Below are positions 15,221 through 64,000 of a DNA stretch of 64,000 nucleotides, piece after piece (the first letter of the stretch is position 1; the number at the start of each line of letters is the position of its first letter). The notes below the pieces were generated by a model. The model did no database searches. It saw only the letters and a list, made by a program, of their open reading frames with translations, and was not told the origin of the DNA. The DNA lies in assembly GCA_028284775.1 (NCBI GenBank), contig JANQRB010000044.1, forward strand, positions 65,342 to 129,341, read 5' to 3'. The translations under genes were made by a program, and so were the position numbers. The stretch comes from Candidatus Kapaibacterium sp. (GTDB taxonomy: Bacteria; Bacteroidota; Ignavibacteria; Kapaibacteriales; UBA7675).

Positions 15221-15519
15221 CGAACAGTCCTCCACAGCGTTGAAGCTAGAGTTTCGGTTTCTTGCACATCGACGGGACTCACTGTCGTGTGATCTGCTTT
15301 GCGGCAAACTACGATTTTCAGCGCAGCTCTGTTACAAGCGCCGCCCGGTTTATGTCGCCGCCGGACGCGCCTGCCGGTGGCGCCTGGCTTCAGCCATAGG
15401 AAATACCTCATTCGTAAATTCGACCGCAGGGATTTCAGACTTGTTATGCTGCTGCGTAATGGCCTATTTTTAAGACTACCACTACTGTAGTGATACGGCA
15501 CATTTGAGGAGATTCGACA

Positions 15520-27101: not shown

Positions 27102-27192
27102 ATCGAAGCGTAGTAAATAGATGGAAGAAGGAGTCGAATGCAAGATAGCAGTGGCCACGGGGATATGAAACTTTAATGCGACCGGATTCCCT

Positions 27193-38271: not shown

Positions 38272-38759
38272 GATCTGTAGCTACTTAAGCGGTGAAGCGG
38301 GAAAGATCAATTGTATTCGAACAAACTCAGGTCTAACGTAACACTATCATCATTCCCTGTTGAAGCTGCTGCTTAGCAAAGTTGTCTGGAACACACTGTC
38401 TTGCAGAAGGCAACATATGGCTGATTTCACACCAATGCCAGGTTGACTGTGTTTGACCGATTCTGAAATCGGGAAATCCATTTCAAACCACATCCATGTT
38501 AGAATCGGCACACTTATGTAGTATATGAGTACAGATATACACTAAAGATTGCTTTTGAATCTGCGCGATTCTACCTTAAAACTACTGCCCGATCCTCACA
38601 ATTTGCTACTACGGCACAACGCTGCCATGTATCCCCGTGAGTGAGTTGTTTTTGATCGATAACACAGATTAAACATTGGGAGCGGTATCGTTTTTTTGGA
38701 AGCGCAGCCATGCCGTACACCTGAGTATTAAGACTTTGCCACGCTAATTGGAGTCTGTT

Positions 38760-41952: not shown

Positions 41953-44073
41953 TCAGCGAACAACGACAACCCTTGCAGCCGGCTGCAATTCCGCGCTGTG
42001 CAGGCTGACGATGTACACGCCGGCGTTCAGCCTGTCTGTCGCCCATGTAATCCGATGGCTGCCGGGGGCGAAGTGACCTTGCCGCAGGGTTCGGACGAGG
42101 CGACCGAAGGTGTCATGAATTGTCAAGCGAGCCTCCGTCGCAGCTGTCAGATAAAACTCGATTTGGGCGACGCCGACTGTAACGGGGGTCGGGTGAACCG
42201 ACAGCACGACGGACGACGGAGCCTCGCGAAAATCCCGATCCACGGATGTCGGTATACGCCGGCGATAGAGATTACGGCGACCATCCTCCAATGCCAGGAT
42301 GCTGCCGCGACGATTGACGACAATTCGTTCGATGGCTTCATTGCCCGGTGCGTCTGCAATTTTGCGCCAGCCATTCGCTTTATGATATACATAGATTCCC
42401 GAATTCGCCGCCAAGGTCATAGATCCGTCGTCACTCGTCGTCATTGCCCAGGGCAGCAGCTTGTTTGCGCCGGGATTGAGGATCTGCCAGGTTTGACCGC
42501 CGTCGCCGGAGTGCATCAGATTGTCATCGCGCTGCTGATCGACATGGCCGACAAAAATGTCGCCGTCGACCGTTACCGCGAGGGTATTGCGCTCGCTGAC
42601 CGCCTCGTCATACAGCCGCCGCTCGGTCCAGGATCCGCAAGCATTTTCAGTGTGAAAAAGCAAACCGCTTTGCGTCAGGGCATAGGCCGAAACATCAGGG
42701 CCGCGCTGCAAGGCAAGGACCTGGTGCCCTTCCAGCTCCGGCGCGCGGCACCAACTGCCTCTATAATAGGCCAGACCCGAGCTTTCAGCGATCAGCAAAC
42801 TACGGTGATTGTGGCCGAGAATGCCCAGAATCCGTGTTTCTTCATCGGGCGGCTCGTACAGAGGCCACCAGTCCCCGCCGTCGGTAGAGCTGAGAATCGC
42901 CATCGAGCGGCCGTCGAGGGCCTGCCCATAGGCAAACCATGCCGCCTGATCAGGGCTGAGGACAAATCCACGCATGCCATCATCCGCCAGAGGCGGGCGT
43001 CCGAAGTAGCTCCATGAACTTCCTTCGTCAGCGCTGATTGCTATACCCGCGGTCGCCAGACTGAGAATGAAATTGTCATCAGGCAGAATGCTGAGATCCG
43101 TGATTTCTTCTTCGACCGGAAGGCCGATGCGTTGCCAGGACTCGCCCTTGTCTTGCGACTGAAGGAGCCCCGCGTGGCGATAGCCGAGCAGCAGCGTATT
43201 ATCGGCGGCGACACTAAGGCTGAGAGGAATCCCCGCAGGTATCGTCAGTTCTTCGGCACCGCTGCCATTGTTGAGAATTCGAAAGACCTCTTTGTTTTCC
43301 AGCAGCGCAAAAATTACTCCCTGTTGGTTGACGGCAAGTTTGGCGATGCTCTTCTGAGCGAGCGCAAAGCTGCTCCAGCTAGCGCCCCGGTCGTCGGAAC
43401 GCAGTATGCCCCCGTTCAGCGTGCCCGCCAGCAAGCTGCCGCCGGCGCGAATCAGCAGCTGCTGAACGCCATAGCCGGGATCGATGCTCTGCCAGTCCAA
43501 GCCATCATCATCGCTGCGGCTCAGGCCCGCCCCCGCGACGAAGGCGTAGACGGCATCGTCGGAGCCTCCGTAGACCCGACATGCATTGCCGATCGAATTA
43601 CTGAGGACCAGCGACCAGCTCAGTCCCTTATCCGTGGAACGCAGCACTCCCTGATTGCCGGCGACAAGCAAACTACCGCCCGGACTCTGTGCGGCGACAT
43701 TAAAGGTTCCGACCGGCGCAGCGATGTTCAACTGGCGAAAACTACTGCCGCCATCGACCGACAAATAAAGAATTCCCTCCGCACTATTCACCGCTATGAT
43801 AGTTCCATCTTCACCAAGCAGCACCGGTACGCCGGAGGCTTGCAAAGGAGTCCAGGTGGCTCCTCCGTCCCAGGATCGTAGGCCGCGAAATTTCGTATCA
43901 AGTTGCTGACCGGCAATAATACCGTCGTCCGGCGTCGGCATCAGATGAAGAATGGTTCCTCCCTGCTGCGGATCGAGCAGTTCCCAGGATATCGTCTGTG
44001 CCTTTGCCGAAAGACAGAATGCCAGGCAGCTCAGCACAACTATGACGCTAGCTTTGTGATTTTTACAATGCAT
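41953..44073 (-). CDS. BNR/Asp-box repeat (sialidase/sortilin-like beta-propeller) protein with T9SS C-terminal sorting domain
   Basis: Start reassigned to ATG 44073 (plus 'cat' 44071-44073) with GAGAGGA SD 6 nt upstream. Signal peptide MHCKNHKASVIVVLSCLAFCLSAKAQ. Multiple S-x-D-x-G-x-(T/S)-W Asp-box units (SWDGGATW, STDKGLSW, SDDDGLDW, SDDRGASW, SQDKGESW, ADEGSSW, STDGGDWW, SGDGGQTW). C-terminus SVHPTPVTVGVAQIEFYL...GVYIVSLHS matches the T9SS CTD. Confidence 0.8.
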   Translation of the reverse strand: MHCKNHKASVIVVLSCLAFCLSAKAQTISWELLDPQQGGTILHLMPTPDDGIIAGQQLDTKFRGLRSWDGGATWTPLQASGVPVLLGEDGTIIAVNSAEGILYLSVDGGSSFRQLNIAAPVGTFNVAAQSPGGSLLVAGNQGVLRSTDKGLSWSLVLSNSIGNACRVYGGSDDAVYAFVAGAGLSRSDDDGLDWQSIDPGYGVQQLLIRAGGSLLAGTLNGGILRSDDRGASWSSFALAQKSIAKLAVNQQGVIFALLENKEVFRILNNGSGAEELTIPAGIPLSLSVAADNTLLLGYRHAGLLQSQDKGESWQRIGLPVEEEITDLSILPDDNFILSLATAGIAISADEGSSWSYFGRPPLADDGMRGFVLSPDQAAWFAYGQALDGRSMAILSSTDGGDWWPLYEPPDEETRILGILGHNHRSLLIAESSGLAYYRGSWCRAPELEGHQVLALQRGPDVSAYALTQSGLLFHTENACGSWTERRLYDEAVSERNTLAVTVDGDIFVGHVDQQRDDNLMHSGDGGQTWQILNPGANKLLPWAMTTSDDGSMTLAANSGIYVYHKANGWRKIADAPGNEAIERIVVNRRGSILALEDGRRNLYRRRIPTSVDRDFREAPSSVVLSVHPTPVTVGVAQIEFYLTAATEARLTIHDTFGRLVRTLRQGHFAPGSHRITWATDRLNAGVYIVSLHSAELQPAARVVVVR

Positions 44074-44423
44074 AGTTCCTCTCAAGTTCAATTTGAGCTT
44101 AGAAAAAGAGCTGTGCACGTAAGCTTGCCGGAAGATTCTTGAGGATTCGCCAATGTAGGATGTTTCATGCTTTTCTCCAACTTTGGCTGACTGCCGGCGG
44201 CTAGTTTGAAAGCGACGCAGTCTTAATCTACAATGGACCAGTCTGTTCAAGGGTAGTCTCCCGGATCCGGATGTAGGCAGACGGACCGGGCTTTGGCATT
44301 TGATTTCTGCAGCACTTTCCGATTGCGAACTTCTTTAAGGCGGTGATTGCAACAATTATTGCGATTCTACGACCTTTGAACGGACCGACATCATAATACA
44401 CTCAATCAAAATGGCAGGACACT

Positions 44424-45812
44424 ATGACGGAATTGCTGCAGGACCTCCAATCGATCGAATTGTTCAGCAAGCTACCGCCGGAACAACTGAAGTGGCTCGT
44501 GGAAAAGTCGGAATTGCGCGGATTTGATGTGGGGGATATCATGTTCAATATCGGCGATCCGATCGACAACATGGGAGTGATCCTGGAGGGAGCATTTGCG
44601 CTTAAATTCAAGCAGGGCGATCAATTCAAGGAGTTCGCGCAATCAGAAAAGGGCAGCATCACCGGCAAGCTGCCATATTCGCGCGCTAAAGTAGCGTCGG
44701 CCCTGGCCGTGGCGATTGAGCCGGCGCGGGTGCTCATTATGCACGAACGCCATCTGCCGGAGATGATCCGCAGTCAGCACGAAATGACCGAAGCCCTGGT
44801 TCACACGATGCTGACGCGCATCCGCGACTTCACTAAGTCGCAGCAGATGAACGAAAAGCTGATGGCTCTCGGCAAACTTTCGGCCGGATTGGCGCACGAG
44901 CTGAATAATCCTTCGTCAGCAGTCGTCCGCAGCGCCGGCGAGCTCAAAAAGCACCTGGCATTGGTACCGGAAAAATTCAAGCGCGTGATTTCCATCCGGC
45001 TGGACAACAGCCAAATCGACATCCTGAACCGGATTTTGTTCAGCAGAGTTCAGCAAGGCATCGCTGAGGGCATGAGCCTGATGGAGCGCAGTGAACGCGA
45101 AGAAGAGCTTACAGACTGGTTGGATGATCATGAGGTTGACAATTCCGACGGCATCGCAGAGACCCTGACGGATTTTGCTTTTAATACCGACGATCTCGAG
45201 GCGATTCGCGAAGCGACAACTGATGAGTATCTCGACGACGCCGTTGCCTGGCTGGAAGACGTCCTCACAACCGAAAAGCTGGTGCAGGAAATTCAAGACG
45301 CCTCGAAACGCATCGCCGACCTTGTAAAATCCGTCAAAACCTACACTCACATGGATCAGGCACCCGACAAACAGAAGATCGACATTCGCAAGGGAATCGA
45401 AAGCACGCTGGTCATGCTGAATCACAAGGCGCGGCGAAAGAACATCACCTTGCAATGCGAGCTGCCGGATGATTTGCCTCTCATCAACGCCTTTCCCAGC
45501 GAGCTGAACCAGGTATGGACCAACCTGATCGACAATGCCATCGATGCGGTGGATCAGGACGGCACCCTTACGCTGCGCGCGCGCCGGGAACGCGAATTCG
45601 TGATGATAGACATCATCGACGATGGCAAGGGTATTCCGGAAGAAATTCAATCACGGATCTTCGAACCGTTTTTCACGACGAAACCGCAGGGACAGGGCAC
45701 CGGCCTGGGGCTCGACATTGTCCAGCGTATCATACAGCATCACAATGCCGATATCAAAGTTGAATCACAGCCGGGAGAGACGAAATTCAAATTGTGCTTT
45801 CCGATGGAGTAG
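44424..45812 (+). CDS. Orphan histidine kinase with N-terminal cyclic-nucleotide-binding (cNMP/CAP-effector) domain
   Basis: ATG 44424 (GGCAGGA 5 nt upstream). cNMP-binding-like N-terminus (FSKLPPEQLKWLVEKSELRGFDVGDIMFNIGDP...). HisKA H-box LSAGLAHELNNPSSAV. HATPase N/G1/G2 boxes (LIDNAIDAV, DDGKGIP, GTGLGLDIV). No adjacent response regulator. Confidence 0.85.
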   Translation: MTELLQDLQSIELFSKLPPEQLKWLVEKSELRGFDVGDIMFNIGDPIDNMGVILEGAFALKFKQGDQFKEFAQSEKGSITGKLPYSRAKVASALAVAIEPARVLIMHERHLPEMIRSQHEMTEALVHTMLTRIRDFTKSQQMNEKLMALGKLSAGLAHELNNPSSAVVRSAGELKKHLALVPEKFKRVISIRLDNSQIDILNRILFSRVQQGIAEGMSLMERSEREEELTDWLDDHEVDNSDGIAETLTDFAFNTDDLEAIREATTDEYLDDAVAWLEDVLTTEKLVQEIQDASKRIADLVKSVKTYTHMDQAPDKQKIDIRKGIESTLVMLNHKARRKNITLQCELPDDLPLINAFPSELNQVWTNLIDNAIDAVDQDGTLTLRARREREFVMIDIIDDGKGIPEEIQSRIFEPFFTTKPQGQGTGLGLDIVQRIIQHHNADIKVESQPGETKFKLCFPME

Positions 45813-47339
45813 GGCAGGTTTTTTTGATTAAGAATTAAGCTTATGCTGCACAGAAGGCAACATCAAAACGCCGGGATCCAGGTGGCATCACGGCCGGAAT
45901 TAACACCTTAATTGTTTTGCTTTTCGATGGGATGATAAGTAGACATGGAGGAGTCCTCCGTCTGCTGTCATACGCGCCACTATAATTGCAGACAAGGGCC
46001 AGAAGAGAAATTTGCAAAATCAGGCTAAAGCAAACTGTAAGGTAAACGGATAGGCTTACGGTCATTCACTATCGAGCGCCGCTCGCCATCGGTAGCATGC
46101 TTGTCGATCCTGATTGACTTCGCGGTGACAGGACGTTAAAGTGACCGTTAGCCTGGTTGAACAGCCCGTTGAGTATTTTTGTCGTATAGCGGATGTTTTC
46201 ACGGCGGTTTGAAGGACAAGTATTTGTATTGTTGTAGCAAATCCGTACGGGGTTTAGCAATCGAGACTGAATGTTTAGTGCAGTGGTGCTGATTAATGGG
46301 TGAGTTGGCGGTGCTGTGGTATGGCTTGGTCTGGCTGCGGATTTCTGGAGGTGGTGGAGGGGAGGCACGCCGCAGGCGAGGTTTATGTGAGGAGATCTGT
46401 TAATTCGACAACTATTATTACGACACTCAGCCTAAAATCCTCAGCCCCTCACAAGTTCACCATCTCACACACCACTCCACCAGACCATCCATACAATCTT
46501 CCCACCCGCCCGTCCTGCGACCAGAAACGTAGCCGCGGTCAATGATCGGCAGCACATTTCTTGTGAAAATGCGTTTAAGACACCGGCGATCAACCATACT
46601 ATCGGCCGACATCGTCAGATCTTCCTACAAGAGCTCCGCAGTGTATACTCCCTAAGCCGGACCTTCCCGCTCAACATTTTACTACTGCTCGGCCAAATAG
46701 AGCGACATAGTTGGACTCATTTGCATAACAACTCTCTCATGAAATGCATCCGACTCATGGCGGATATCGATACGCGGTTCTTCTGCAAAAATAATTTCGC
46801 AGAGGCAGTCCCATGGGCCAAACCCATGTCTCTGCCCCGCAACTCGAATCACCGCAATTCACTGCGGTCAATGTTTTGCGGCCGAACTGTAACACTGACG
46901 CGGCTTCTGTATCATTATGCCGCTTCGAATGCTGGCGACGATGCACTCCAAGAGAATAATCTATGGATCTCCGGTGTCGATTTATGAGTACTTTTGCGGC
47001 AGTGCCCCACTCTCAGGTCGGAGCCGTTCAAACGATTTCCGGCGCTCAATTGGAAGAGGATGCACTCGGAATTTCCGGGACAGCTGCTCCCGCTGATATT
47101 GCCGGTGGAATTCAACGGCAGATAAGTCCGAGACAAATGTGCTACCCGCGATTCAAAACCGCGGCGCTCATCCGGCTGTCGGAAGGAACTGGCAAGGTAG
47201 GGGCAGAACTTGCCGAATCGTTGACAAGAACGACATTCGCAAAATTGTGTTCAAATTCTATGCGTCTGGCGGTAAGCTGATTTGTGACAAAGCCTAATCA
47301 CGAGGGCACCTGCCGCTTTTAGACAATTCTAGGTATGCT

Positions 47340-50300
47340 ATGCGAGGCAAAATTTCGCAATTCCTTCATGCGATGGCCCCTCCGGCCGATACCAAAGGGT
47401 CTACACTCCGACGCTTACCACTCCTGCTGGTCGTTCTGCTTGCCCTCCATCAGCTTCAGGCACAGGAGTTCGTTGCTAATGTAGGCCAATGGCCGGAGCA
47501 GGTTCTCTTCCGCACGCATGCATGTCAGCCGGAGCTTTGGATCACTGAGCAGGGCTTCGTGACCGACCTCCGTAATGAAAAATTGGGGTCAGCCGCTGCA
47601 ATGCACTATTCTTTTGTTGCCGGCAGATTTCAATCCGCAGAAGGACAGCAGCCTCTTCCCGGCCGGTATAATTATCTGCAGGGCGACCGGGTTCGAGGGC
47701 TCAGCCCCCGCTATCGGCGTGTACTCCTGCGAAATGTTTATCCTGACATCGACATGGTCTGGTATTTTGAAGAAGGCAAAGCGCGCTACGATCTTCTTGT
47801 CCATCCGGGCGCCAATCCCTCCTCAATCAGGATGAATATTACCGGCGCAGCGACAGCCGGCGTCACCTTGGCGGGTGATCTGCAGCTTGCCAGCGAAGCC
47901 GGCACTTTGCAGCAGCGCGGATTACGCGCCTATCAGCTTGATGCCAATCGCAATCAGCTGGAAATCAAGTGCTGCTTCAAGATTGATGAGTCCCGCTCGC
48001 CCATAACCGTTGCTTTCGAATGCGGTGATTATGATAAGAAGCGTACGCTTGTCATCGATCCACTGGTGTACAGCAGCTATCTCGGCGGCGCCGATCGCGA
48101 CGAAATATTGGCAATGTCAATCGACAGCCAGGGCTATACTTATGTGGCGGGAGTGACGAACTCGGCGCAATTTCCGACAGTACCCGGCTCCTACGATACC
48201 GATGGTAAAGGTGACCGCTCGGCTTTTGTCAGCAAGCTGAGTCAAGACGGGTCAACGCTGATATGGTCCACCTTTCTCGGCGGCGGCGCGGACGATCAGG
48301 CCAATGCCATTGCTCTGGGTCCTGACAATGATGTTTTTGTCGCCGGAATGACAAAATCGACTGATTTTCCATCGACGGCACGCTTCGGCAGGGAACTGGA
48401 AAGATCCATTGCCTTTGTTGCGCGCTTAAGCGCCGATGGCGGCAGCCTACGCTACGGCGTGCTCTTTGGCGGCGAGAAAGATGATGTGATTAGCGCTGTG
48501 ACAGTTGATCCTTCCGGTAATGCCTATGTAACCGGCAGCACCAGCTCTGATGAGTATTTCCCTCTTCGCAATGCCTTCGACTCAGACTACAACGGCGGCA
48601 TCGATGCCTTTCTCCTGGCACTTAACCCCGCCGGCGATGCCTTGCTTTTTGCGAGTTATCTGGGCGGCAACGGTCACGATGCAGGGCAGGATGTTTCACT
48701 CTCCGCCGAGGGCAGCGTCATCCTTTGCGGAAACACGGAATCGGAAAACTTTCCCGCTACTGTGGGTACCCCGATCAATGATTCTGATGCTTTTCTCGCC
48801 GTTTTCGATCCGGATGGTTCACGCCGCCTTATCCGCCTCTTTGGAGGTGAGAAGGATGATGTCCCGCTTGCACTTATCGAGGGCAAGGACAAGGACATCT
48901 ATGTGGCCGGCTATACCGCTTCCGATGATTTTCCCGTGACGCCGGGCAGCTATGGGCAGAACCCGGTCGGCAAAGACGACGCCTTTGTTGCACGTATTGA
49001 TCGTGCAGGTGAAATCCTATTTGCGCGGCGTTTGGGCGGAATCGAGCGTGACTACGCGACGGCCATCGACCTGGACAAAAGCGGAGGCATCTTCCTAAGC
49101 GGCGCAACGGAATCGTCGTCGTTTCCGATAAGCGATAATGCACCCTGGCCTGATTGGCGGGGCGGGCGAGATGCCTTTGTGGCACATCTGCACCCCGACA
49201 GCAGCGCCCTGCTTTTCGCCACATTTATTGGCGGCAGCGACGACGACGAGGCTGTGGCAGTTGCTGTTGACGACCAGAGCAATATTTATGTCGCCGGCAG
49301 CAGTGAATCCGACGACTTTCCCACAACAGATAATGTCTTGTTGCCGCTTTTTCAGCAAGACCGGGACGGCTTCATCACCAAGTTCAGCATTGACGCCGTC
49401 GCACGACGGCCGCTCTTGCGTGTAAGCGCCGCCGATTTGGATTTTGGCACTGTGTCCCTTGGTGAAAAGCTTGTTGAGCGAGTAGCAATCTCGAATGTTG
49501 GCAATGCACCGGCATTGTTGCAAAAATTGTCATTCAGCGACAATGACGAAAATGCTTTCAGCGATATCTTCGGCAGCGAACTGCCCATCACTATCGAGCC
49601 GGGAACCGAGTACAGCGCTGCTTTTGGCTTTCATCCGCTTTCAGAAGGACCAAAAACAGCTGCGTTGACAATCAGCGGCACTGCGAATCCGATTCTCCTG
49701 CGTCTGAAAGGCAGTGCAACAGAGGATGATGGAAGCAGGGATTCGGCTATTGTGGCCCTACCGGCTCTCGAGGCGGCTTCCGGCGACACGGTCCTTCTGC
49801 CCCTGCGCATACTCCGTATTCCGGCATCTTTCGATCAGCGTTCCGCGACCGGCTTCAGAGCTGAATTTCATTTCAATGCCAGCCTCTTGACACCGCTCGA
49901 CCCGGCACTCCGTGGACAGATAAACGATGGCAGACAGCACATTGTCATCGAAGGCGTTTACCTGGGCGGTTCCTCTAACGATGTGTTAGCAGAGTTGCCG
50001 ATGATCTGCGGCCTCGGGGATGCCGAACAAAGTGAACTGATTCTGGATTGTTCTTCGATACGATGGGAGGTTGACGGCAGTACTATCGATCAGGCCAATG
50101 TATGCCGCGACGGCAGCTTTCGTTTAACTGACATCTGGCGCTTCCGCGAAGATAGGCTGGTTAACAGCAACAAAGGCAACCTGGCACTGGATATACAGCC
50201 CAATCCGGTTGGCGATGCGGCAACAATTCAGGCAAGGATTTCCTCAGCGCCGGCTCACCTGCGGCTGCACGATGCGCTCGGTCGGCCCCTCATCGACCTG

Positions 50301-50432
50301 AGTGACAGACTGCCGGCAGCGGCTGGAAACCTTCGTTTCACTTTCGTAACTGCCGGCCTGGCCTCCGGCACATATTATCTGCGACTGACCTCCGGAACTT
50401 TTGTCCTGCTACGAGTTATGCAGGTTAAATAG
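47340..50432 (+). CDS. SBBP beta-propeller repeat protein (DUF7948-like N-terminus) with T9SS C-terminal sorting domain
   Basis: ATG 47340. Signal ...LRRLPLLLVVLLALHQLQAQ. SBBP-type repeats (DIYVAGYTASDDFPVTPGSY; NAYVTGSTSSDEYFPLRNAF; NIYVAGSSESDDFPTTDN...). C-terminus LDIQPNPVGDAATIQARIS...GTYYLRLTSGTFVLLRVMQVK matches the T9SS CTD. Confidence 0.85.
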   Translation: MRGKISQFLHAMAPPADTKGSTLRRLPLLLVVLLALHQLQAQEFVANVGQWPEQVLFRTHACQPELWITEQGFVTDLRNEKLGSAAAMHYSFVAGRFQSAEGQQPLPGRYNYLQGDRVRGLSPRYRRVLLRNVYPDIDMVWYFEEGKARYDLLVHPGANPSSIRMNITGAATAGVTLAGDLQLASEAGTLQQRGLRAYQLDANRNQLEIKCCFKIDESRSPITVAFECGDYDKKRTLVIDPLVYSSYLGGADRDEILAMSIDSQGYTYVAGVTNSAQFPTVPGSYDTDGKGDRSAFVSKLSQDGSTLIWSTFLGGGADDQANAIALGPDNDVFVAGMTKSTDFPSTARFGRELERSIAFVARLSADGGSLRYGVLFGGEKDDVISAVTVDPSGNAYVTGSTSSDEYFPLRNAFDSDYNGGIDAFLLALNPAGDALLFASYLGGNGHDAGQDVSLSAEGSVILCGNTESENFPATVGTPINDSDAFLAVFDPDGSRRLIRLFGGEKDDVPLALIEGKDKDIYVAGYTASDDFPVTPGSYGQNPVGKDDAFVARIDRAGEILFARRLGGIERDYATAIDLDKSGGIFLSGATESSSFPISDNAPWPDWRGGRDAFVAHLHPDSSALLFATFIGGSDDDEAVAVAVDDQSNIYVAGSSESDDFPTTDNVLLPLFQQDRDGFITKFSIDAVARRPLLRVSAADLDFGTVSLGEKLVERVAISNVGNAPALLQKLSFSDNDENAFSDIFGSELPITIEPGTEYSAAFGFHPLSEGPKTAALTISGTANPILLRLKGSATEDDGSRDSAIVALPALEAASGDTVLLPLRILRIPASFDQRSATGFRAEFHFNASLLTPLDPALRGQINDGRQHIVIEGVYLGGSSNDVLAELPMICGLGDAEQSELILDCSSIRWEVDGSTIDQANVCRDGSFRLTDIWRFREDRLVNSNKGNLALDIQPNPVGDAATIQARISSAPAHLRLHDALGRPLIDLSDRLPAAAGNLRFTFVTAGLASGTYYLRLTSGTFVLLRVMQVK

Positions 50433-51322: not shown

Positions 51323-51859
51323 TCAGCTGGCGGGAAAGCGAATTGTCAGCTCCTCCCGTCCGGCGGCATAACTCGCAGGATAACGACGCAGATCGCTCGT
51401 TACCAGTGGCGAATCGCGCCAGCCGCCGTCGCTGGAAGAGAATTCAGCCCCGTGGCATGGGCATATCATATTGGCGCCGGGTTCGGCCGGCAAATTTACT
51501 TCACAAACCTGGTGCGTACAAAGGGCGGTGACGACCAGAAATTCGCTTTCACTCTTCCGGATGATAATCAATCGCCGGCCGTCGTTAAAGGGTGGTATTG
51601 CGATTTTGATTGCACCGCCAACCGATCCTAGTGCCGGATAGTCACTCAGGAGCAGCGTCGCAGCAGCATCCGGCTGAAGGGCATCGCCGGTAGATGGCCC
51701 GACGATCTTAACGACACGCGGTTCACACGAAGACAGGAGCTGGCCGAGCGCTCCACTGCAACATGCAGTACAGCAAAGCGTTCCTGCGCTGCGCAGAAAC
51801 TCCCGTCGTTGCTGCCTGCGTCTTGCTTGTACCTTTTTCGATTTAGCATTCGTTTGCAT
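51323..51859 (-). CDS. Rieske [2Fe-2S] domain protein with twin-arginine (Tat) signal
   Basis: ATG 51859 with GGAG SD 8 nt upstream. Tat-type motif RRRQQRREFLRSAGTL. Rieske cluster ligands CTHQVCEV ... CPCHGAEF (CxH...CxxH). Confidence 0.85.
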   Translation of the reverse strand: MQTNAKSKKVQARRRQQRREFLRSAGTLCCTACCSGALGQLLSSCEPRVVKIVGPSTGDALQPDAAATLLLSDYPALGSVGGAIKIAIPPFNDGRRLIIIRKSESEFLVVTALCTHQVCEVNLPAEPGANMICPCHGAEFSSSDGGWRDSPLVTSDLRRYPASYAAGREELTIRFPAS

Positions 51860-54276: not shown

Positions 54277-55272
54277 TCAATCTTTAAGATGCTGCAGTCG
54301 TGCGATCCAGTATTGTTCTTTGTCGCTGCCGGCGGCACGCAGGGCAGCCAGAGACCGCGACTTCAGTTGCAGCGCATCGGCCCGACGACCTTCCTGACCG
54401 GCGCCGAATGCCAATTCTCCCAATAGCTCGCCCTGTAGCTCCCGCCATTGGCCTGATTCCGCCAAAGCAAGCGCGCGTTTCAGTATGCTGCGACTGCTAT
54501 CCGGGTGGCCGAGCTGACGGTGAGCAACGCCAATCTGGCGCAGGCTGCGAACCCGATCCGCCGAGCCGGGCGGCGGCAGGTGCTCCCAGAGACCTAGAAT
54601 GACTTCTTCGATCTTCTGCGCTTTCGCTCCACCGCTTTCCACAAAGCCGTGCATTCGCTGTGATGCGTCGGAGGCCGATTTTGGCACTGTGTTTGCGTTG
54701 CGGGAACTGTCTGTTTGCGCCGCTTCTGCATCCGAAGGCGTCGGTACGTCGGGGATCTGACGCTCCGGCTCGACGGCTGACGGGCTGGGGGCCGGTACCG
54801 CCGCGGGCTGCGAATGTGAAATCGCCTCATCGACGGACTCCGTTTGATGGAAAGAACTGAAATTCTCCGACGGTGTCGCGGTCTGGTCATCACGCGTGGC
54901 GACCGGAAGAGGCGTCTTCTCCGTTGGAGCCGGCAGGACGTCACCAGCGGCGCCGGTATCATCGCCGGGTGCGAGCCATAGCAGCGAGCTGAGAATTATC
55001 ACACCCGCGCCGGCAAACCACAGCCAGAGCGGAGGCCGCCGCCGCTGGATCTGCAGTGCTGCCCGAATGCTTTCTTTAGTCGCAGCGCGATAATCAAGGG
55101 CGCGCGCGTCGCGGGACTGCTGTTCCGCCGTCAGGATTGTTTCCAGTCGCTGAAGGTCATGCAGTTCCTCAGCCAGAGAGCTGTCGTGCATCAGCAAGGC
55201 ATCGAGCTCGGCCTGCTCGGCGGGACTGAGGCTGCCGTCCAAAGCTTTAGCGATTAATTCATCATGTCTCAT
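54277..55272 (-). CDS. Membrane-anchored anti-sigma factor (putative), single TM, periplasmic C-terminal helical domain
   Basis: ATGA start/stop overlap with the upstream ECF sigma gene (55269-55272). N-terminus MRHDELIAKALDGSLSPAEQAELDALL resembles an anti-sigma N-domain. TM helix LWLWFAGAGVIILSSLLWLA. Pro/Ala-rich linker, then a helical C-terminus. Confidence 0.6.
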   Translation of the reverse strand: MRHDELIAKALDGSLSPAEQAELDALLMHDSSLAEELHDLQRLETILTAEQQSRDARALDYRAATKESIRAALQIQRRRPPLWLWFAGAGVIILSSLLWLAPGDDTGAAGDVLPAPTEKTPLPVATRDDQTATPSENFSSFHQTESVDEAISHSQPAAVPAPSPSAVEPERQIPDVPTPSDAEAAQTDSSRNANTVPKSASDASQRMHGFVESGGAKAQKIEEVILGLWEHLPPPGSADRVRSLRQIGVAHRQLGHPDSSRSILKRALALAESGQWRELQGELLGELAFGAGQEGRRADALQLKSRSLAALRAAGSDKEQYWIARLQHLKD

Positions 55273-55826
55273 TCTTCATCTGATAAATAGGGTTGCAGAC
55301 TTGTACGAAGCATTTTCTTGGCGCGATGGATGCGCACTTTCACGAGCGCCATCGAAATATCGAGCCGCTGCGCTATTTCGTGATAGGCAAAGCCATCCCT
55401 GTATTTTAACTCGAAAGCAGCGCGGAACTCCTCCGGGAGTGCGGCGATCGCTTTGTTCAAAGCTTCAGCGAAAAAAATATCCTTATCCGGTCCTCTCTCC
55501 GGAGCCGCGAGTGCATAGCCCGCGTCATCGATGTCGGTCGTCTGCAATTGGTTGCGTACCGACAGCAGACAGTTGTTCCGCGCGATGGTAAACATCCAGC
55601 CGGCAAAGTTGCCTCCCTTGAATTGTTCCGCTTTCTGAAACACCGTCATCAAGGTCGATTGATAGATATCTTCGGCAACCTGCCGGTTCTTCGTCGCTGC
55701 CAGACAGTAGGCATACAACCGCCGATCATAACGCCGGTACAACTCGTCGAAAGCAGCCTCATCCCTCTGTTGTATAAGGGTCAGGAGCGCTTCGTCTGTC
55801 TGACACTGGTACGCCGCTTTGTTCAT
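55269..55826 (-). CDS. ECF-subfamily RNA polymerase sigma-70 factor
   Basis: 185 aa. Region-2-like YRRYDRRLYAYCLAATKNRQVAEDIYQSTLMTVF and a region-4 HTH near the C-terminus (FAYHEIAQRLDISMALVKVRIHRAKKMLR). Confidence 0.85.
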   Translation of the reverse strand: MNKAAYQCQTDEALLTLIQQRDEAAFDELYRRYDRRLYAYCLAATKNRQVAEDIYQSTLMTVFQKAEQFKGGNFAGWMFTIARNNCLLSVRNQLQTTDIDDAGYALAAPERGPDKDIFFAEALNKAIAALPEEFRAAFELKYRDGFAYHEIAQRLDISMALVKVRIHRAKKMLRTSLQPYLSDEE

Positions 55827-56069: not shown

Positions 56070-56273
56070 TTTAGCGGCTGCGGCTTTGGGTGAAGATGGC
56101 GGTTGCCTGTTAAGAAAAATGGGCGGGACTGTAACAATCGGATTGGATTTACATTCCTGGCGCAAGTTTTATTATTGCTTCGGCGGAATTAACAAATAGC
56201 ATCGCGTGGAGTATTGTGAAGGGTGCTATGTCGGCGGCGGCAATTTTTTCGGATTATTCGGATGCAAAGTTGT

Positions 56274-57518
56274 ATGATTAAACAACAGACCATCAAGGCG
56301 CTGGCATTAAGTCTGGCGATCGTGCTCCTGCCGCACTGCAGTTCAGACGAGGACGGCGGTAGTCCGAGCTCTCCTTCCCTGGAAGATGCCGTGATAATTG
56401 ATCCCGCGGATGCTGCGATCGCGATAGGTGAGCAGCTTCAACTACAGGCCCGGCATGCAGGCGCAGCGGTTGAAGTTCATTGGAAGGTGGCGCAAGGGCC
56501 GGGCAGCATCGACGACAGCGGCGTCTACAGCGCGCCCGCGAGCCTGACGGTTCGTTCGGTAACCGCCACCATTCGGGCCACGATGCAGCGTGACGAGTCG
56601 ATTCGCGGCTTTGCGCAGATTGTCGTCAGCACTAACGAACCCGACCCAAATGACGATCCCGGTACAACGGTCTCCCTGGCAGTACAGCCTGAGTCGGCCG
56701 CGCTCAATCTTAACGAAGAGCTGCAGTGCCAGGCATTTTTCAACGGCCAGCCTGCAAGCGGCGTTTCCTGGGCAGTGACGGAAGGGCCCGGAACGGTCGA
56801 TGCCAATGGACTCTACCGCGCGCCATCCTCAATTGACGCGTCAAAGCTGCGCGCCCTCATCGAGGTCCGTAGCGCGGGATCGCCGCCACTCACGCGCAGC
56901 GTAGAAGTTCAAGTATACAACTACATGCCCGGCACGGTCTGTTTTCAGCGCGACGTGATGCCGATGCTCTTGTCGAACTGCGCTATGAGCGGCTGTCACG
57001 ACGCCAAGACACATGCCGATGGCATAGACCTCTCCAGTTATGAAGCGATGATGCGCTCGCATGAAACGGTACGGCCGTACAATGCGGGAGACAGTGAACT
57101 CTACGAGTCGATCACCGACTTCGGCGATGACGACCTGATGCCGCCGCCGCCCCGCGATCCGTTGTCAAAAGAGCAGATTGCACTGGTCCGACGCTGGATC
57201 AATGAAGGCGCCCCGGACTCGGATTGCGCTCCGCCGGACGGCAGCAACTGCGATACGGTCGATGTCGGCTTCCGTTCTACCATTCAGCCTCTGATGCAAA
57301 GCTATTGCGTCGGCTGCCACAGCAATGCCGCGCCGGCAGACAATCTTGCTCTGGAAAGCTACGAACAGGTCCGCAACTCAGCTCGCGATGGCGGCCTCCT
57401 GGGATCGATCGTCCACGATCCGGCTTACAAAGCCATGCCGTCAAAGGATCTGAAGCTGAACGACTGCCAGATCAAACAGATCCGGGTCTGGATTGCTGCC
57501 GGTACACCGGATAACTAA
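56274..57518 (+). CDS. Lipoprotein with two Ig-like (Big_2-type) domains and two PSCyt1-type (Planctomycete cytochrome c) c-heme-binding modules
   Basis: Start tentatively at ATG 56274 (MIKQQTIKALALSLAIVLLPHCSS); the track start is GTG 56223. Module 1 is FQRDVMPMLLSNCAMSGCHDAK...LMPPPP...WINEGAP (C-x4-CH). Module 2 is FRSTIQPLMQSYCVGCHSNAAP...AMPS...WIAAGTP (canonical CxxCH). Both follow the PSCyt1 pattern F..V.P.L...C..CH...MPP...WI..G. Confidence 0.75.
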   Translation: MIKQQTIKALALSLAIVLLPHCSSDEDGGSPSSPSLEDAVIIDPADAAIAIGEQLQLQARHAGAAVEVHWKVAQGPGSIDDSGVYSAPASLTVRSVTATIRATMQRDESIRGFAQIVVSTNEPDPNDDPGTTVSLAVQPESAALNLNEELQCQAFFNGQPASGVSWAVTEGPGTVDANGLYRAPSSIDASKLRALIEVRSAGSPPLTRSVEVQVYNYMPGTVCFQRDVMPMLLSNCAMSGCHDAKTHADGIDLSSYEAMMRSHETVRPYNAGDSELYESITDFGDDDLMPPPPRDPLSKEQIALVRRWINEGAPDSDCAPPDGSNCDTVDVGFRSTIQPLMQSYCVGCHSNAAPADNLALESYEQVRNSARDGGLLGSIVHDPAYKAMPSKDLKLNDCQIKQIRVWIAAGTPDN

Positions 57519-57753
57519 ATCCTGTCCGCTTCCGCAAGAAGATAATCTCTCTTCGTTTGTCCGTTCCCCCCGACACTTCTTTGCCCGGGCAAAGAATGGC
57601 GTCGGGGGTCGTTTTTTCGGCAATAATTGGCCGGAAGAAAAAATTCATTCCCAGATTGGTCGGGATTGATGAACTTTGCGGTCAGAAAGACCTCCGGCAA
57701 GGACTAGTGCTCAATCGTTCAGTACTATTCACCAGAAAGGAGAAGTTGCGACC

Positions 57754-58281
57754 GTGAAATCCAACAAAGCAGGCAACTGGAGACGATGGATACTTTGGGG
57801 ACTGCTGGCGCTCGTCATTGTCATTCAGCTGATTCCGGTGGAACGCGGTAATCCGCCCGTTGAAACGACCATCGGTGCACCCGAGGCCGTAATGGCTATT
57901 CTGCGCAGCGCCTGTTACGACTGTCATTCCAATGAATCGCATTGGCCCTGGTACAGTTATGTTGCGCCTGTTTCCTGGCTTATTGCGCACGATGTGGAGG
58001 AAGGCCGCGAGCATCTCAACTTTTCGACCTGGAACCGATTCAGCGACAAAGACCGCGTTGAGCTGCGCGAGGAGATATGGGAGGAAGTCGAAGAGGGCGA
58101 AATGCCGCTCGCAATTTATTTGCCATTGCACCCCGAAGCCGAGCTGAGTGAGAGCCAGAAAGCCACGTTACGCAGTTGGGCTCTCGGCAGCGCACACAGT
58201 GGCAACCGGGACGCGCGTCTGGAGCCGAGCCAGGCCCGCAGCGGCGAGGAGCATCAAGACGCAAGCCATGAAACACATTAA
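57754..58281 (+). CDS. Membrane-anchored Haem_bd (PF14376-like) heme-binding domain protein
   Basis: GTG 57754 with AAAGGAGAAG SD ~8 nt upstream (the track ORF starts at TTG 57676). N-terminal TM WRRWILWGLLALVIVIQLIPV. CYDCHSNESHWPWYSYVAPVSWLIAHDVEEGREHLNFSTW matches the Haem_bd signature, including CxxCH. Confidence 0.7.
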   Translation: MKSNKAGNWRRWILWGLLALVIVIQLIPVERGNPPVETTIGAPEAVMAILRSACYDCHSNESHWPWYSYVAPVSWLIAHDVEEGREHLNFSTWNRFSDKDRVELREEIWEEVEEGEMPLAIYLPLHPEAELSESQKATLRSWALGSAHSGNRDARLEPSQARSGEEHQDASHETH

Positions 58282-58401: not shown

Positions 58402-60063
58402 ATGAAAAAGCCGCTGATAGTTGCACTTGACGACGACCCGCAGGTGCTCAGAGCGATCCGACGCGATCTACGCAATGAATACCGCGAAGAGTATCGCATA
58501 CTTTCCACGACCTCGGCGCGGGAAGCATTGGAGTCCTTGAAAGAGTTGAAGCTGCGTGGCGAGAAAATCGCGCTTTTCATTTCCGACCAGCGGATGCCAG
58601 AAATGGAGGGCGTCGACTATCTGGAGCGGGCCAAGGAGATTTTCCCCGAGGCGCGGCGCGTGCTCCTGACGGCATATTCCGATACGGAAGCGGCCATTAA
58701 AGCGATCAATGACGTGCAGCTCGACTACTATCTGATGAAACCCTGGGATCCGCCGGAAGAAAAATTGTACCCTGTGCTGAACGACCTGCTCGACGAATGG
58801 CAGGCGAGCTACCGGCCGGACTTCGAAGGCATCAAAATCGTAGGCTATCAGTGGTCGCCGCGCTCGCATGGCATTAAGGACTTTCTGGCGGGCAACCTGA
58901 TTCCTTACCTTTGGCTGGATATCGAATCGAATGAGGAAGCACGCCGCTTGATCGACGCTGCCGGCGTGGCGCATAAAGAGTTGCCGGCGGTGTTTTTCGA
59001 GGACGGCAGCCACATGGAGAATCCCACAGCAACCCGGATCGCCGCAAAAATTGGCATGAATGCCCACGCTTCCGACACGATGTACGACGTCGTGATTGTT
59101 GGCGCCGGCCCGGCGGGTCTGGCTGCGGCCGTTTATGGCGCATCGGAAGGCCTCAAAACGCTGCTGGTGGAAAAGCGGGCGCCGGGCGGGCAGGCGGGCA
59201 CAAGTTCGCGCATCGAAAATTACCTCGGCTTCCCGAAAGGTCTGAGCGGCTCGCAGCTCACGCAACGCGCCATCACCCAGGCCACTCGACTGGGGGCGGA
59301 GTTCCTGCTGCCGCAGGAAGTCAAAAGCATCAGCCTGCGCGATAAATACAAAATCATTACACTCGCCGACGGTGCTGAGATCCACGCGCTCAGCGTCATC
59401 ACGACTACAGGCGTGGACTACCGCAAGCTCGCGACCAAGGGCATTGCTGATTTCACCGGGGCGGGCGTTTATTACGGCGCGGCGACGACGGAGGCGGCAG
59501 CCTGCCGCGATAAGGACGTCTATATCGTCGGCGGCGGCAACTCGGCCGGACAGGCTGCCATGTATCTCTCGACATTCGCCAGCAATGTCTACATTCTTAT
59601 CCGCCGCGACTCGTTGAAACACTCGATGTCGCAGTACCTTATAGACCAGATTGCCGGCACAGCCAATATCGTGCTGCAGCCGCATACGGTGGTAGAAGAA
59701 GCTATCGGCAACGGCAACCTGAGCGCCCTGGTGCTGAAAGACCTGAATAGCAATGAATGCCGCAGGGTAGAGGCGGGCTCGCTCTTCATCTTTATCGGCG
59801 CACGCCCCTATACCGAGTGGCTGGAAGCCGATATCATCAAGAATCAGCGCGGCTTTATCGAAACTGGACGCGACCTGATCCGGCATCCGGACTTTAAGAA
59901 AGTCTGGAAACTCGATCGCGAGCCTTTCCTGCTGGAATCGAGCTCGCCCGGCCTCTTTGCCGCCGGCGACGTGCGCGCCGGCGCCATGAACCGCGTCGCT
60001 TCGGCCGTCGGCGAAGGATCGATGGCCATCAAATTTGTCCACGAGTACCTGGCTCAGCTCTGA
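58402..60063 (+). CDS. Response-regulator receiver (REC) domain fused to a thioredoxin-reductase-fold FAD/NAD(P)H flavoprotein that lacks the CxxC redox centre
   Basis: ATG 58402 with AAAGGA SD. REC has LDDD (res 9-12), phosphoacceptor Asp in FISDQRMPEMEG, T in VLLTAY and K in YYLMKPW. The C-terminal ~330 aa have TrxB-like Rossmann motifs (VVIVGAGPAGLAAAVY ; YIVGGGNSAGQAAMYL). TrxB 'CATC' aligns to AATTEAAAC, so there is no CxxC. Confidence 0.85.
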   Translation: MKKPLIVALDDDPQVLRAIRRDLRNEYREEYRILSTTSAREALESLKELKLRGEKIALFISDQRMPEMEGVDYLERAKEIFPEARRVLLTAYSDTEAAIKAINDVQLDYYLMKPWDPPEEKLYPVLNDLLDEWQASYRPDFEGIKIVGYQWSPRSHGIKDFLAGNLIPYLWLDIESNEEARRLIDAAGVAHKELPAVFFEDGSHMENPTATRIAAKIGMNAHASDTMYDVVIVGAGPAGLAAAVYGASEGLKTLLVEKRAPGGQAGTSSRIENYLGFPKGLSGSQLTQRAITQATRLGAEFLLPQEVKSISLRDKYKIITLADGAEIHALSVITTTGVDYRKLATKGIADFTGAGVYYGAATTEAAACRDKDVYIVGGGNSAGQAAMYLSTFASNVYILIRRDSLKHSMSQYLIDQIAGTANIVLQPHTVVEEAIGNGNLSALVLKDLNSNECRRVEAGSLFIFIGARPYTEWLEADIIKNQRGFIETGRDLIRHPDFKKVWKLDREPFLLESSSPGLFAAGDVRAGAMNRVASAVGEGSMAIKFVHEYLAQL

Positions 60064-60723
60064 CTACGTGCGGCCATCAGCAAGTGTCGGCAGACGCGGC
60101 CGTTAGCCCGCCCGCTTCGCAGATTTCGCAATATCTCACCCATACCGACATGGCCGGCGACGGTATTTTGCGGCCGTAGGAAAGAAATGCGAAAGCGGAC
60201 ACCGTCACTGGCGAAATGCGCGCCACCGCCGAAATAATACCAGGGAAAGACGGCATTATCAAGATCGGCGATCTTCCAGTCGAAGAGTGTCACATGGTGA
60301 TTTTGCCGCAGCCGGTCTGCCACGTCGGGCAGAGCGCACATTCGCTCGATGCGCCGCAGATGCCGCCGGCTAAGCGCGCCGCAGCCCCGCGCCGTAAAGG
60401 CGATGCGCCCGTTGGCAATCCGCAGGCTGCCGGAGGTGCTGCCCGACAAACCCACCAGCAGCCAGGCCTCGCACAGTAAGGATTGTTTTGATTCGTTGTA
60501 TCTGCTTTGCGCCATTGCCGTTTCGCTCCATAAGCCGAAAATCTCACAAATTTAGCATTATTTTGTGCGGATCGCAGCTGGGAGACCGACCGACCGGATG
60601 GCGGTGATACCAGAAGCCTGCGCCAGTGTCTCGTGCAGTCCTAATTGATCGGGGCAGCAGGTTGAACTCAATCTCAAGCTTTCAATAACTCTTCACGGAT
60701 AAATAAAACAGAAGGACGTCAAT

Positions 60724-61164
60724 ATGTCAATCTTGCAAAAAATGATTCATCCTCTGGGGGCCGGTTCGCGGGGGCTGTTCAGCGATCTGGGCTTACTGCT
60801 GCTGCGGCTCTTCTTCGGAGGGATTATGTTGTTCGGCCACGGCTGGGGAAAGCTGACGGGTTTTGGCCAGATCGCCGGCGGTTTCCCTGATCCCCTCGGC
60901 GTAGGCAGTACTCTTTCCCTGAGCCTGACGGTGTTTGCGGAGTTCTTTTGTTCCTTGGCACTGATTTTCGGCTTCATGACACGGCTCGCCTCGCTACCGC
61001 TGATAGTGACAATGCTGGTCGCCGTCTTTGTCATTCACATCGACGATCCTTTCGGCAAGCAGGAATTGGCCTTACTCTACCTGGGCGCCTACTTTACTCT
61101 GTTTCTGGCCGGTCCCGGACGCTTTGCAGTGGATGCTCGGCTTTCCGACAAAAACGCTGCCTGA
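60724..61164 (+). CDS. DoxX-family membrane protein
   Basis: ATG 60724 with GAAGGA SD 8 nt upstream. 146 aa, 4 predicted TM segments. LLLLRLFFGGIMLFGHGWGKL is typical of DoxX. Confidence 0.75.
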   Translation: MSILQKMIHPLGAGSRGLFSDLGLLLLRLFFGGIMLFGHGWGKLTGFGQIAGGFPDPLGVGSTLSLSLTVFAEFFCSLALIFGFMTRLASLPLIVTMLVAVFVIHIDDPFGKQELALLYLGAYFTLFLAGPGRFAVDARLSDKNAA

Positions 61165-63615: not shown

Positions 63616-64000
63616 CTACGATTTCGGTCGCACCTGCGGTTTGAGCATATTCTTTGGGTCGAGTACGGTATCCAGCTCTTCCTTGGAAAGCAGCTTCTGC
63701 TCCACCACCAGATCGTAGATGCCGCGCTTGCTCTCCAGCGCTTCCTTCGCCAGCTTGCTGCAGACTTCATAGCCCAGCAGCGGACTGAGTGCCGTTACGA
63801 TACCGATACTGTTCTGCACATAACGCCAGCAGACGTCTTCATTGGCCGTAATGCCGTCGATACAGCGATGTTTCAAGGTAACGATGCCGTTTTTAAGCAT
63901 CTGGATCGACTCCAGGATGCAGGCGGCGATAACAGGCTCCATCACATTCAGTTCTAACTGACCGGCCTCCGCCGCCATAGAAACCGTGGTATTGTTACCC
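63616..64000 (-). CDS. Class-II fumarase / aspartate ammonia-lyase family enzyme, C-terminal ~128 aa (5' end beyond window)
   Basis: AAEAGQLELNVMEPVIA...VTALSPLLGYEVCSKLAKEAL...LSKEELDTVLDPKNM matches the conserved C-terminal region of the FumC/AspA lyase family. The reading frame continues to the window edge. Confidence 0.8.
   Translation of the reverse strand, partial: GNNTTVSMAAEAGQLELNVMEPVIAACILESIQMLKNGIVTLKHRCIDGITANEDVCWRYVQNSIGIVTALSPLLGYEVCSKLAKEALESKRGIYDLVVEQKLLSKEELDTVLDPKNMLKPQVRPKS

Follow-up and report, generated by a model that had tools for sequence, protein, structure and literature searches.

A thioredoxin reductase-like response regulator family that has lost both redox-active disulfides and is nearly always paired with one histidine kinase

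The usual endpoints of two-component systems and of sensors of the cyclic-nucleotide type are transcription, the turnover of second messengers and the phosphorylation of proteins, and the best-known members of the thioredoxin reductase (TrxR) fold that lack the CxxC motif are the TrxR-like ferredoxin-NADP+ reductases (FNRs). Response regulators that join a receiver (REC) domain to a TrxB-like module are already known from censuses, one of which lists a REC-TrxB class for Mycobacterium-like bacteria and Heimdallarchaeota (PMC5847659), and another of which counts such proteins in a thermophilic cyanobacterium (PMC9953108). Only such census mentions were found when the literature was searched for missing cysteines, a glutaredoxin (Grx)-like domain, a dedicated kinase or a function, most subscription journals lying outside the coverage, and the family is catalogued but unstudied. 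Here we analyse one such gene (58402..60063, forward strand) of Candidatus Kapaibacterium sp., located on contig JANQRB010000044.1 (assembly GCA_028284775.1, positions 65,342 to 129,341; hereafter “the window”, i.e., the whole stretch of 64,000 nucleotides that was analysed, to which all unprefixed coordinates refer). According to Pfam, its product has the composition that defines the census category, Pyr_redox_2 being the TrxB-like domain to which REC is joined. To the extent that this could be checked, the novelty lies in the family-wide loss of both disulfides, the constrained loop rebuilt in place of one of them, the dedicated kinase and the swappable regulatory domains.

The gene encodes 553 amino acids, followed by a stop codon, and its product is made of a REC domain, a Grx-like domain and a TrxR-like flavoprotein. 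The call of its ATG start codon is right, since M1 is invariant among 120 homologs (the best 120 among at least 8000 candidates of a word-indexed search, all of them full length and about 70% identical), while the AlphaFold2 (AF2) model of the whole protein has a mean pLDDT of 86.8 and a pTM of 0.80. The REC domain (residues 1–125; 58402..58776, +) is of the RpfG/HupR-like type with a KPW motif, as seen from Pfam (Response_reg PF00072, residues 7–118, 55 bits for a cut-off of 30.2), from its matches in the Protein Data Bank (PDB; best 2rjn and 2jk1, E~1e-16), from NF053512 (114 bits) and from the (beta-alpha)5 secondary structure of the model. In a BLASTP alignment with CheY, the acidic pocket D11/D12 (58432-58437, +) corresponds to D12/D13, the predicted phospho-acceptor Asp62 (58585..58587, +) to D57, T90 (58669-58671, +) to T87 and K113 (58738-58740, +) to K109. 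All these positions are invariant in the 120 homologs, and the receiver residues (acidic pocket, phospho-acceptor Asp, Thr and Lys switch residues) are, judging from the alignment, canonical.

The C-terminal module (residues 226–553; 59077..60060, +) is a FAD/NAD(P)H domain pair of the low-Mr TrxR fold, recognized by Pfam (Pyr_redox_2 PF07992, residues 228–539, 117 bits for a cut-off of 26.1), NCBIfam, PDB matches and Foldseek. To look beyond close homologs, residues 125–553 were used in an exhaustive HMMER search against 50%-identity representatives, of which the top 150 matches (305–469 bits) are mostly 38–64% identical to the query, three partial sequences being higher. Among these distant representatives, the FAD motifs are kept nearly without fault: G234, G236, P237 and G239 of the Rossmann motif GAGPAG (residues 234–239; 59101..59118, +) in 150 of 151, G262-G263 of the GGQ motif (59185-59193, +) in 151 of 151 and its Q264 in 149, and G522-D523 of the GD(VR) motif (59965-59976, +) in 140 of the 141 residues present. 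The same holds for the NAD(P)H Rossmann motif GGGNSAG (residues 377–383; 59530..59550, +), where N380, S381, A382 and Q384 are each found in at least 145 of 151.

The redox centre of the module, in turn, is gone. In HMMER alignments to solved TrxRs, GVYYGAATTEAAAC falls opposite GVSYCAVCDGAFF, so that GAATTE stands in place of CATCD (the CxxC and acid-base Asp of TrxB), and MAFFT against E. coli TrxB aligns C135 with G359, C138 with T363 (with a one-residue insertion) and D139 with E364. The whole protein has only two cysteines, C368 and C453, which are 85 residues apart and neither of which is conserved. More generally, no cysteine is conserved in the 120 close or the 150 distant relatives, and no column of the TrxR-like domain exceeds 40% Cys across the 150 representatives, the richest being column 368, a hydrophobic position. 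Clade-wide, the former redox-centre loop (GAGVYYGAATTEA; 59458..59496, +; placed by HMMER and MAFFT alignments) follows the pattern G-x-G-V-[YF]-Y-[GA]-A-x-x-x-E-A, with CxxC in none of the 150 representatives and Y358, E364 and A365 retained in 144, 135 and 126 of 151, respectively. Within the close family, this loop has the highest mean column identity (0.91), ahead of the FAD domain (0.83), REC (0.82), the NADPH domain (0.73) and the Grx-like domain (0.71). That the ex-CxxC loop is the most conserved segment points to a working site, which was rebuilt and then frozen, and argues against decay.

Other traits are also specific to the clade, such as an insertion before the GD motif (residues 490–511; 59869..59934, +), which is absent from TrxB and YumC (MAFFT) and also faces a gap when 7aaw and 4zn0 are aligned by HMMER, and in the region of which W502, R506 and P508 are kept in 93, 120 and 123 of 151 representatives. 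The clade-specific invariants are M409-S-x-Y-L413, W502, R506-x-P508, R525 and R531. As for the overall geometry, Foldseek superposes the AF2 model best on TrxRs in the flavin-reducing (FR) state (TMt 0.86–0.89); for the same Lactococcus enzyme, TMt is 0.89 with the FR form (5mh4) vs. 0.58 with the FO form (5mjk). Such a preference, drawn from a predicted model, would fit a retained hydride transfer from NAD(P)H to the flavin.

Between REC and the flavoprotein lies a redox-dead domain of the glutaredoxin/mycoredoxin fold (residues ~140–218; 58819..59055, +). It weakly matches the mycoredoxin family TIGR02200 (35 bits, under the cut-off of 89.5) and a solved mycoredoxin (PDB 2lqo, E 7e-6), it has glutaredoxin topology in the AF2 model (beta-alpha-beta-alpha-beta-beta-alpha), and it is found in about 126 of the 150 distant representatives. 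According to the alignments, the place of the Grx/Trx (Trx for thioredoxin) CPxC, at the N-terminus of helix 1, is taken by an SPRSH motif (58855..58869, +), of which S152, P153, S155 and H156 are invariant or nearly so across close homologs, while distant relatives show a looser [S/D/A]-x-x-[S/T/A], with CxxC in 0 of 150 and one Cys left at either position in 16. Hence, the domain has the fold and the cis-Pro position of glutaredoxins and mycoredoxins (P195 being retained in 118 of 126 Grx-like domains) but neither CPxC nor a monothiol CxxS. Because the Grx-like fold keeps its cis-Pro position but reads SPRS, and because the TrxR-like part also lacks CxxC, the protein seems to descend from a Grx/Trx-TrxR fusion of the AhpF/NTRC kind and to have lost both redox-active disulfides.

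A preliminary description of this gene, made from its sequence, had proposed a REC domain with all its phosphorylation residues, fused to a flavoprotein with both Rossmann motifs but no CxxC, and therefore unable to act as a disulfide reductase. These points are borne out by the alignments above: the strings lie where it placed them (ALDDD at residues 8–12, FISDQRMPEMEG at 59–70, VLLTAY at 87–92, YYLMKPW at 109–115, GAGPAG at 234–239, GGGNSAG at 377–383 and GVYYGAATTEAAACRD at 355–370), no deviation from a canonical REC was found, and no CxxC occurs elsewhere in register with the TrxB active site.

None of this is peculiar to one genome. In a scan of one genome per species, relatives were found in at least 598 species genomes from eight or more phyla, including Bacteroidota, Cyanobacteria, Acidobacteriota, Chloroflexota and Actinomycetota. 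The best 120 homologs belong to Balneolaceae, Cytophagales, other Bacteroidota and Thermodesulfobacteriota, and the best 80 genomes of the scan, whose loci were examined for gene context, include Chitinophaga, Dyadobacter, Hymenobacter, Nostoc, Anabaena, Streptomyces, Micromonospora and Caballeronia, along with many Acidobacteriota, Chloroflexota, Gemmatimonadota and one metagenome-assembled genome of Planctomycetota. Members from different phyla are about 70% identical over their full length. Together with the intact open reading frame (ORF) and the number of species genomes, these close relatives in other phyla rule out a one-off degenerate gene or pseudogene: the clade is large and old, and the gene is a typical member of it. 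Public annotations of the relatives are generic or wrong (“FAD-dependent oxidoreductase”, “response regulator”, “thioredoxin reductase (NADPH)”).

The family also extends beyond response regulators. About 60 of the 150 representatives carry a REC domain, and in about 60 the Grx-like plus TrxR-like core is preceded by something other than REC. According to Pfam, an N-terminal cNMP_binding domain (i.e., of the cyclic-nucleotide type) is fused directly to the core in P0129, P0132, P0136, P0137, P0154 and P0174, EF-hands follow the core at the C-terminus of P0211, and P0148 (~410 aa) is a stand-alone core devoid of any sensor domain. Finally, the metagenomic protein P0121 (714 aa) has both an N-terminal REC and a C-terminal cNMP domain, the latter with a fully canonical phosphate-binding cassette (GE...PRTASVRA), which suggests that one and the same chain is controlled both by phosphorylation and by a cyclic nucleotide. 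Such swapping of sensors (cNMP, EF-hands, REC plus cNMP, none) is what one would expect if the core were an effector enzyme under regulation and, as far as domain architectures tell, this effector has come, in the course of evolution, under the control of a phosphorelay, of a ligand that binds directly, or of Ca2+.

The REC-bearing members are nearly always paired with one CRP/cNMP-type histidine kinase. Among the first five contigs sampled, the adjoining same-strand gene is in four cases a soluble histidine kinase of about 470 aa, with an N-terminal cNMP_binding-type domain and HATPase_c, and in Catalinimonas the stop codon of the kinase overlaps the start of the REC gene. With a Hidden Markov Model (HMM) built from five adjoining kinases and run on the stop-to-stop ORFs of the 80 genome loci, a full-length ortholog was recovered in the flanks of 70 loci, and directly adjacent in 62 of the 80. 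The kinase gene precedes the REC gene in Bacteroidota and follows it in Cyanobacteria, Acidobacteriota, Actinomycetota and others, always on the same strand except at one of the 70 loci (L041, where it is not directly adjacent), and the median gap is 38 bp in the upstream cases. Ten loci have no kinase, three of these having almost no upstream flank.

In the window, the only ortholog matched by the kinase HMM is 44424..45812 (+), 12.6 kb upstream of the regulator. It encodes the probable cognate kinase, a soluble protein with a CRP/cNMP-type sensor, a DHp domain with the H-box GKLSAGLAHELNNP and HATPase_c (Pfam: HATPase_c 91 bits; cNMP_binding 27.0 bits for a cut-off of 27.5; HisKA weak), and is 47–48% identical, over its full length, to the kinases that adjoin the ortholog elsewhere. 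The window kinase matches 101 of 110 family-conserved columns and the window REC 65 of 70, and the two proteins presumably still work together. Downstream of the kinase, an orphan in the window, ~1.5 kb (45813-47339) hold a single ORF of at least 100 aa (46963-47280), without Pfam match.

From these observations we infer a mechanism, including catalytic activity, the direction of its regulation, the acceptor and the kinase ligand, in which a ligand-sensing kinase phosphorylates D62 and REC gates a FAD/NAD(P)H oxidoreductase with a non-thiol acceptor, and whose chances we put at a little better than even. Briefly, the soluble histidine kinase (44424..45812 in the window) would sense a small ligand through its CRP/cNMP-type domain and phosphorylate Asp62 of the receiver, with the protein as the response regulator that ends a two-component pair of its own. 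The receiver would control the C-terminal module, which would stem from a fused glutaredoxin-thioredoxin reductase ancestor with both disulfides lost, and would keep its FAD site, its NAD(P)H site and the rebuilt, constrained loop. Hydride transfer from NAD(P)H to FAD is most likely retained and, as no dithiol-disulfide exchange is possible, the electrons would have to go to a non-thiol acceptor, which could be a small molecule (O2, a quinone, a metal chelate or some other compound) or else a protein with haem or an iron-sulfur cluster. Phosphorylation would gate activity, probably via the geometry of the dimer or via a freed rotation of the NAD(P)H domain.

Several observations weigh against this mechanism. 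The kinase and its regulator are split in the window (as in a close syntenic relative, locus L007), where the regulator instead has genes for Haem_bd, a PSCyt1 cytochrome and DoxX around it, a context specific to the lineage. The phosphate-binding cassette of the kinase is non-canonical (G-K-L-P-Y-S-R-A vs. FGE...R[ST]A in the CRP reference): unlike classical cAMP/cGMP binders, its sensor has neither the FGE Glu nor R[ST]A, while the direct cNMP fusions vary in this respect. The ligand of the kinase may thus not be a cyclic nucleotide, and calling it a cAMP/cGMP sensor is not justified. Moreover, the 2'-phosphate motif of the flavoprotein is eroded to IRRDSL (59599-59616, +), a shortened HRRxxxR in which R401 alone is conserved clade-wide (142 of 151), position 402 being Gly in 86 of 151 and the third Arg being removed by a 3-residue deletion, which leaves the preference for NADPH or NADH, and perhaps the affinity, in doubt. 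In the AF2 model, the FAD-contacting loop 260–268 has a pLDDT below 50. When the flanking ORFs of the 80 loci were clustered, no recurrent acceptor or substrate gene emerged, the recurrent clusters being the kinase (70 of 80) and a small zf-UBP protein (17 of 80), and the rest antisense-frame artefacts or sporadic genes; nor did the contexts of one cNMP-fused and one EF-hand relative reveal anything consistent. Finally, biochemical data for a family member were not found in the searched literature.

At face value, some of these observations would suit a pseudoenzyme or sensor scaffold, in which the module binds FAD and/or NAD(P)H as a sensor of redox or nucleotide state, or uses the FO/FR rotation as a switch, and in which the output of the pathway is a protein-protein interaction or a feedback on the kinase. 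Both catalytic disulfides have disappeared together, as in a fossilized intramolecular Trx-TrxR couple, the NADPH 2'-phosphate motif is eroded, no recurrent substrate or acceptor gene is linked in the 80 loci, and kinase and regulator form a closed two-gene unit without any other output protein. We nevertheless consider this explanation, the main rival, possible but rather unlikely, as the strongest constraint in the protein bears on the cofactor motifs and, above all, on the ex-active-site loop, as the sensor-less forms of ~410 aa suit an enzyme better than a signalling adaptor, and as effector enzymes typically have regulatory domains upstream that can be exchanged.

The preliminary description had instead likened the flavoprotein to YumC, which would make it a ferredoxin/flavodoxin-NADP+ reductase under phosphorylation control, a special case of the mechanism above. 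CxxC is indeed absent, as in the TrxR-like FNRs, the motifs for FAD and NAD(P)H are intact, and the window gene stands amid genes of the haem or electron-transfer type, i.e., its upstream neighbour Haem_bd (57676..58281, +), a PSCyt1/cbb3-type cytochrome c-like protein (56223-57518, +), DoxX downstream (60724-61164, +) and a Rieske-domain ORF (51323-51859, -), but the haem-gene context is common only to the window and the syntenic L007, and a ferredoxin or flavodoxin gene recurs nowhere near family members in the 80 loci. Furthermore, solved TrxRs match the flavoprotein at E 1e-47 to 1e-33 (HMMER vs. PDB), against 3e-17 for YumC (3lzw) and ~1e-14 to 2e-11 for other TrxR-like FNRs. The C-terminal extension of YumC stacks on the flavin with an aromatic or His residue. 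It is lacking here, both in a MAFFT alignment with YumC and in the comparison with 3lzw, since the window protein ends 9 residues past the last aligned position, where 3lzw has 24 more, while the clade has its own insertion and a Grx-like domain, which FNRs do not. Membership of the YumC-type FNRs is ruled out by this weak similarity and by the missing extension, and an FNR-like role under phosphorylation control appears improbable.

As for a genuine thioredoxin/glutaredoxin reductase using cysteines located elsewhere in the protein or in a partner, it is hardly credible, even though pipelines call relatives “thioredoxin reductase (NADPH)” and the best NCBIfam match is TIGR01292, given that this match (226.2 bits) is well under the equivalog cut-off of 343.45 and that the lack of conserved cysteines, documented above, rules out a canonical TrxR.

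What remains of the preliminary interpretation is thus a canonical REC on a flavoprotein that has no CxxC and is no dithiol-disulfide reductase, the resemblance to YumC stopping at the missing CxxC. Its description of the architecture as an unusual output for a two-component pathway was overstated, REC-TrxB being listed in censuses (PMC5847659, PMC9953108) and the family being so widespread, while it had overlooked four things: a Grx-like domain, itself degenerate, the motif conserved in place of CxxC, the CRP/cNMP-type kinase dedicated to the family, and sister proteins in which other domains take over the regulation.

Regarding gene context, the zf-UBP protein (~85–100 aa) stands beside the kinase/regulator pair in 17 of the 80 loci (within L008-L087), as well as in L001 (6277-6528) and L005 (9293-9565), and could be a lineage-specific third component; no homolog of it was found in the window. 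In L005, a CPA2 Na+/H+ exchanger with TrkA domains (9951-12329) carries the same zf-UBP domain at its C-terminus. Such a CPA2 antiporter was considered as a linked partner, owing to its proximity to the gene in two loci (L001, with CPA2/TrkA_N, and L005), but this did not generalize.

Around the regulator, the window further encodes an ECF sigma factor (55269-55826, -) and a TPR-containing putative anti-sigma (54277-55272, -), and the order in L007 is ECF sigma, TPR anti-sigma-like, PSCyt1 cytochrome, Haem_bd, REC-TrxR-like, DoxX and OmpA. The spacer between regulator and DoxX is ~660 bp in the window vs. ~170 bp in L007. It holds an ORF of 153 aa (60054-60515, -) without Pfam match, which converges on the REC-TrxR-like gene and shares the last 10 bases of the latter. 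This ORF is a small gene peculiar to the lineage, or else it is non-coding. At the 3' end of the window, a gene running off the edge (63616-63978, -) encodes a lyase of the class II fumarase/aspartase type, of which the window holds the C-terminus (FumaraseC_C, 72 bits). Its syntenic counterpart in L007 (12619-14490) is a 623-aa cNMP_binding-Lyase_1-FumaraseC_C fusion, i.e., a second enzyme of the neighbourhood fused to a cNMP-type sensor, the N-terminus of the window copy falling outside the window.

Elsewhere in the window, a SAM-I riboswitch (RF00162, 71 bits; 13255-13377, -) lies ~180 nt upstream of a PLP enzyme gene of Cys/Met metabolism (11882-13072, -), which is an ordinary arrangement. 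Between 25900 and 28600, GC content rises to 0.60–0.67 (vs. ~0.55) with a strongly positive AT skew (up to 0.48), and this stretch coincides with the minus-strand genes of a DUF819 membrane protein (25941-27314) and an S41 peptidase (27193-28719), which overlap by ~120 bp as called, one start being probably mis-set. Finally, four genes encode large secreted-type proteins (13832-15307, -; 38748-41597, +; 41953-44250, -; 47340-50432, +), with BNR/sortilin, SBBP beta-propeller and FlgD-Ig domains, and two of these proteins have weak matches to Por_Secre_tail (the sorting domain of the type IX secretion system), just under the Pfam cut-off. Like the closest homologs of the regulator, which are of Balneolaceae and other Bacteroidota type, these proteins are indicative of a genome akin to Bacteroidota/Balneolota.

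To return to the phosphorylation-gated oxidoreductase that we favour, a redox flavoenzyme as the terminal output of such a pathway would amount to a different bacterial response, namely a direct change of electron flow. A more specific version, which we put forward only tentatively and hold to be rather unlikely, is that the core is a widespread and so far undescribed redox output of bacterial signalling, namely an NAD(P)H-burning flavoenzyme switched on by the kinase cascade, by a bound CRP/cNMP-type ligand or, in the EF-hand variants, by Ca2+, and that it makes reactive oxygen or a reduced small-molecule signal, or else drains or redirects NAD(P)H. If true, it would be a bacterial functional analogue of the EF-hand-regulated NADPH oxidases, built on a TrxR scaffold with a new Tyr-Tyr/Glu active site. 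In any case, the family is worth studying, being old and broad, strongly constrained and mis-annotated as thioredoxin reductase, with no studied member found. It also offers a clean case in which a fused Trx/Grx-TrxR couple lost both disulfides, then rebuilt and froze a loop, which bears on the origin of new flavoenzyme chemistries. Moreover, the kinase-regulator pair consists of two soluble proteins with no membrane component, and is thus a directly testable system.

Compared with known systems, the flavoprotein is closest to the low-Mr TrxRs (TrxB, TIGR01292; 7aaw, 4zn0, 1tde), with which it has in common the two-Rossmann FAD/NAD(P)H fold, at ~30% identity, and the motifs GxGxxG, GGQ, xENYxGFP, GGGNSA and GD. 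It differs from TrxB by the absence of CxxC, a Glu in place of the acid-base Asp, the shortened HRRxxxR, an insertion of ~15–22 residues before the GD motif and the N-terminal fusions to REC and the Grx-like domain. With AhpF and NTRC, it has in common a Trx-fold domain covalently joined to a TrxR module, which makes such a fusion, by analogy, a plausible model for its ancestor. AhpF (TIGR03140) is the second-best NCBIfam match (159–163 bits vs. a cut-off of 503), limited to the reductase part, and Foldseek aligns AhpF over ~550 columns, but with a poor global superposition (TM 0.36–0.39). Furthermore, AhpF has two N-terminal Trx folds with CxxC in addition to the CxxC of its reductase, whereas the window protein has one Grx-like fold with SxxS and no CxxC in the reductase. 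The TrxR-like FNRs (YumC, 3lzw; 2zbw, 3ab1, 6gas) also have the TrxR fold without CxxC and use FAD and NADPH, but they lack the Grx-like domain and the clade-specific motifs.

On the signalling side, the “TrxB” response regulators of the censuses have the same architecture, of which the censuses record the existence only (PMC5847659, PMC9953108). As in the response regulators with enzymatic outputs, i.e., RpfG (HD-GYP), PleD (GGDEF), RsbU (PP2C) and CheB, the REC domain of the window protein would gate a C-terminal enzyme. However, where their outputs are nucleotide-second-messenger, phosphatase or methylesterase domains, its own is a redox flavoprotein.

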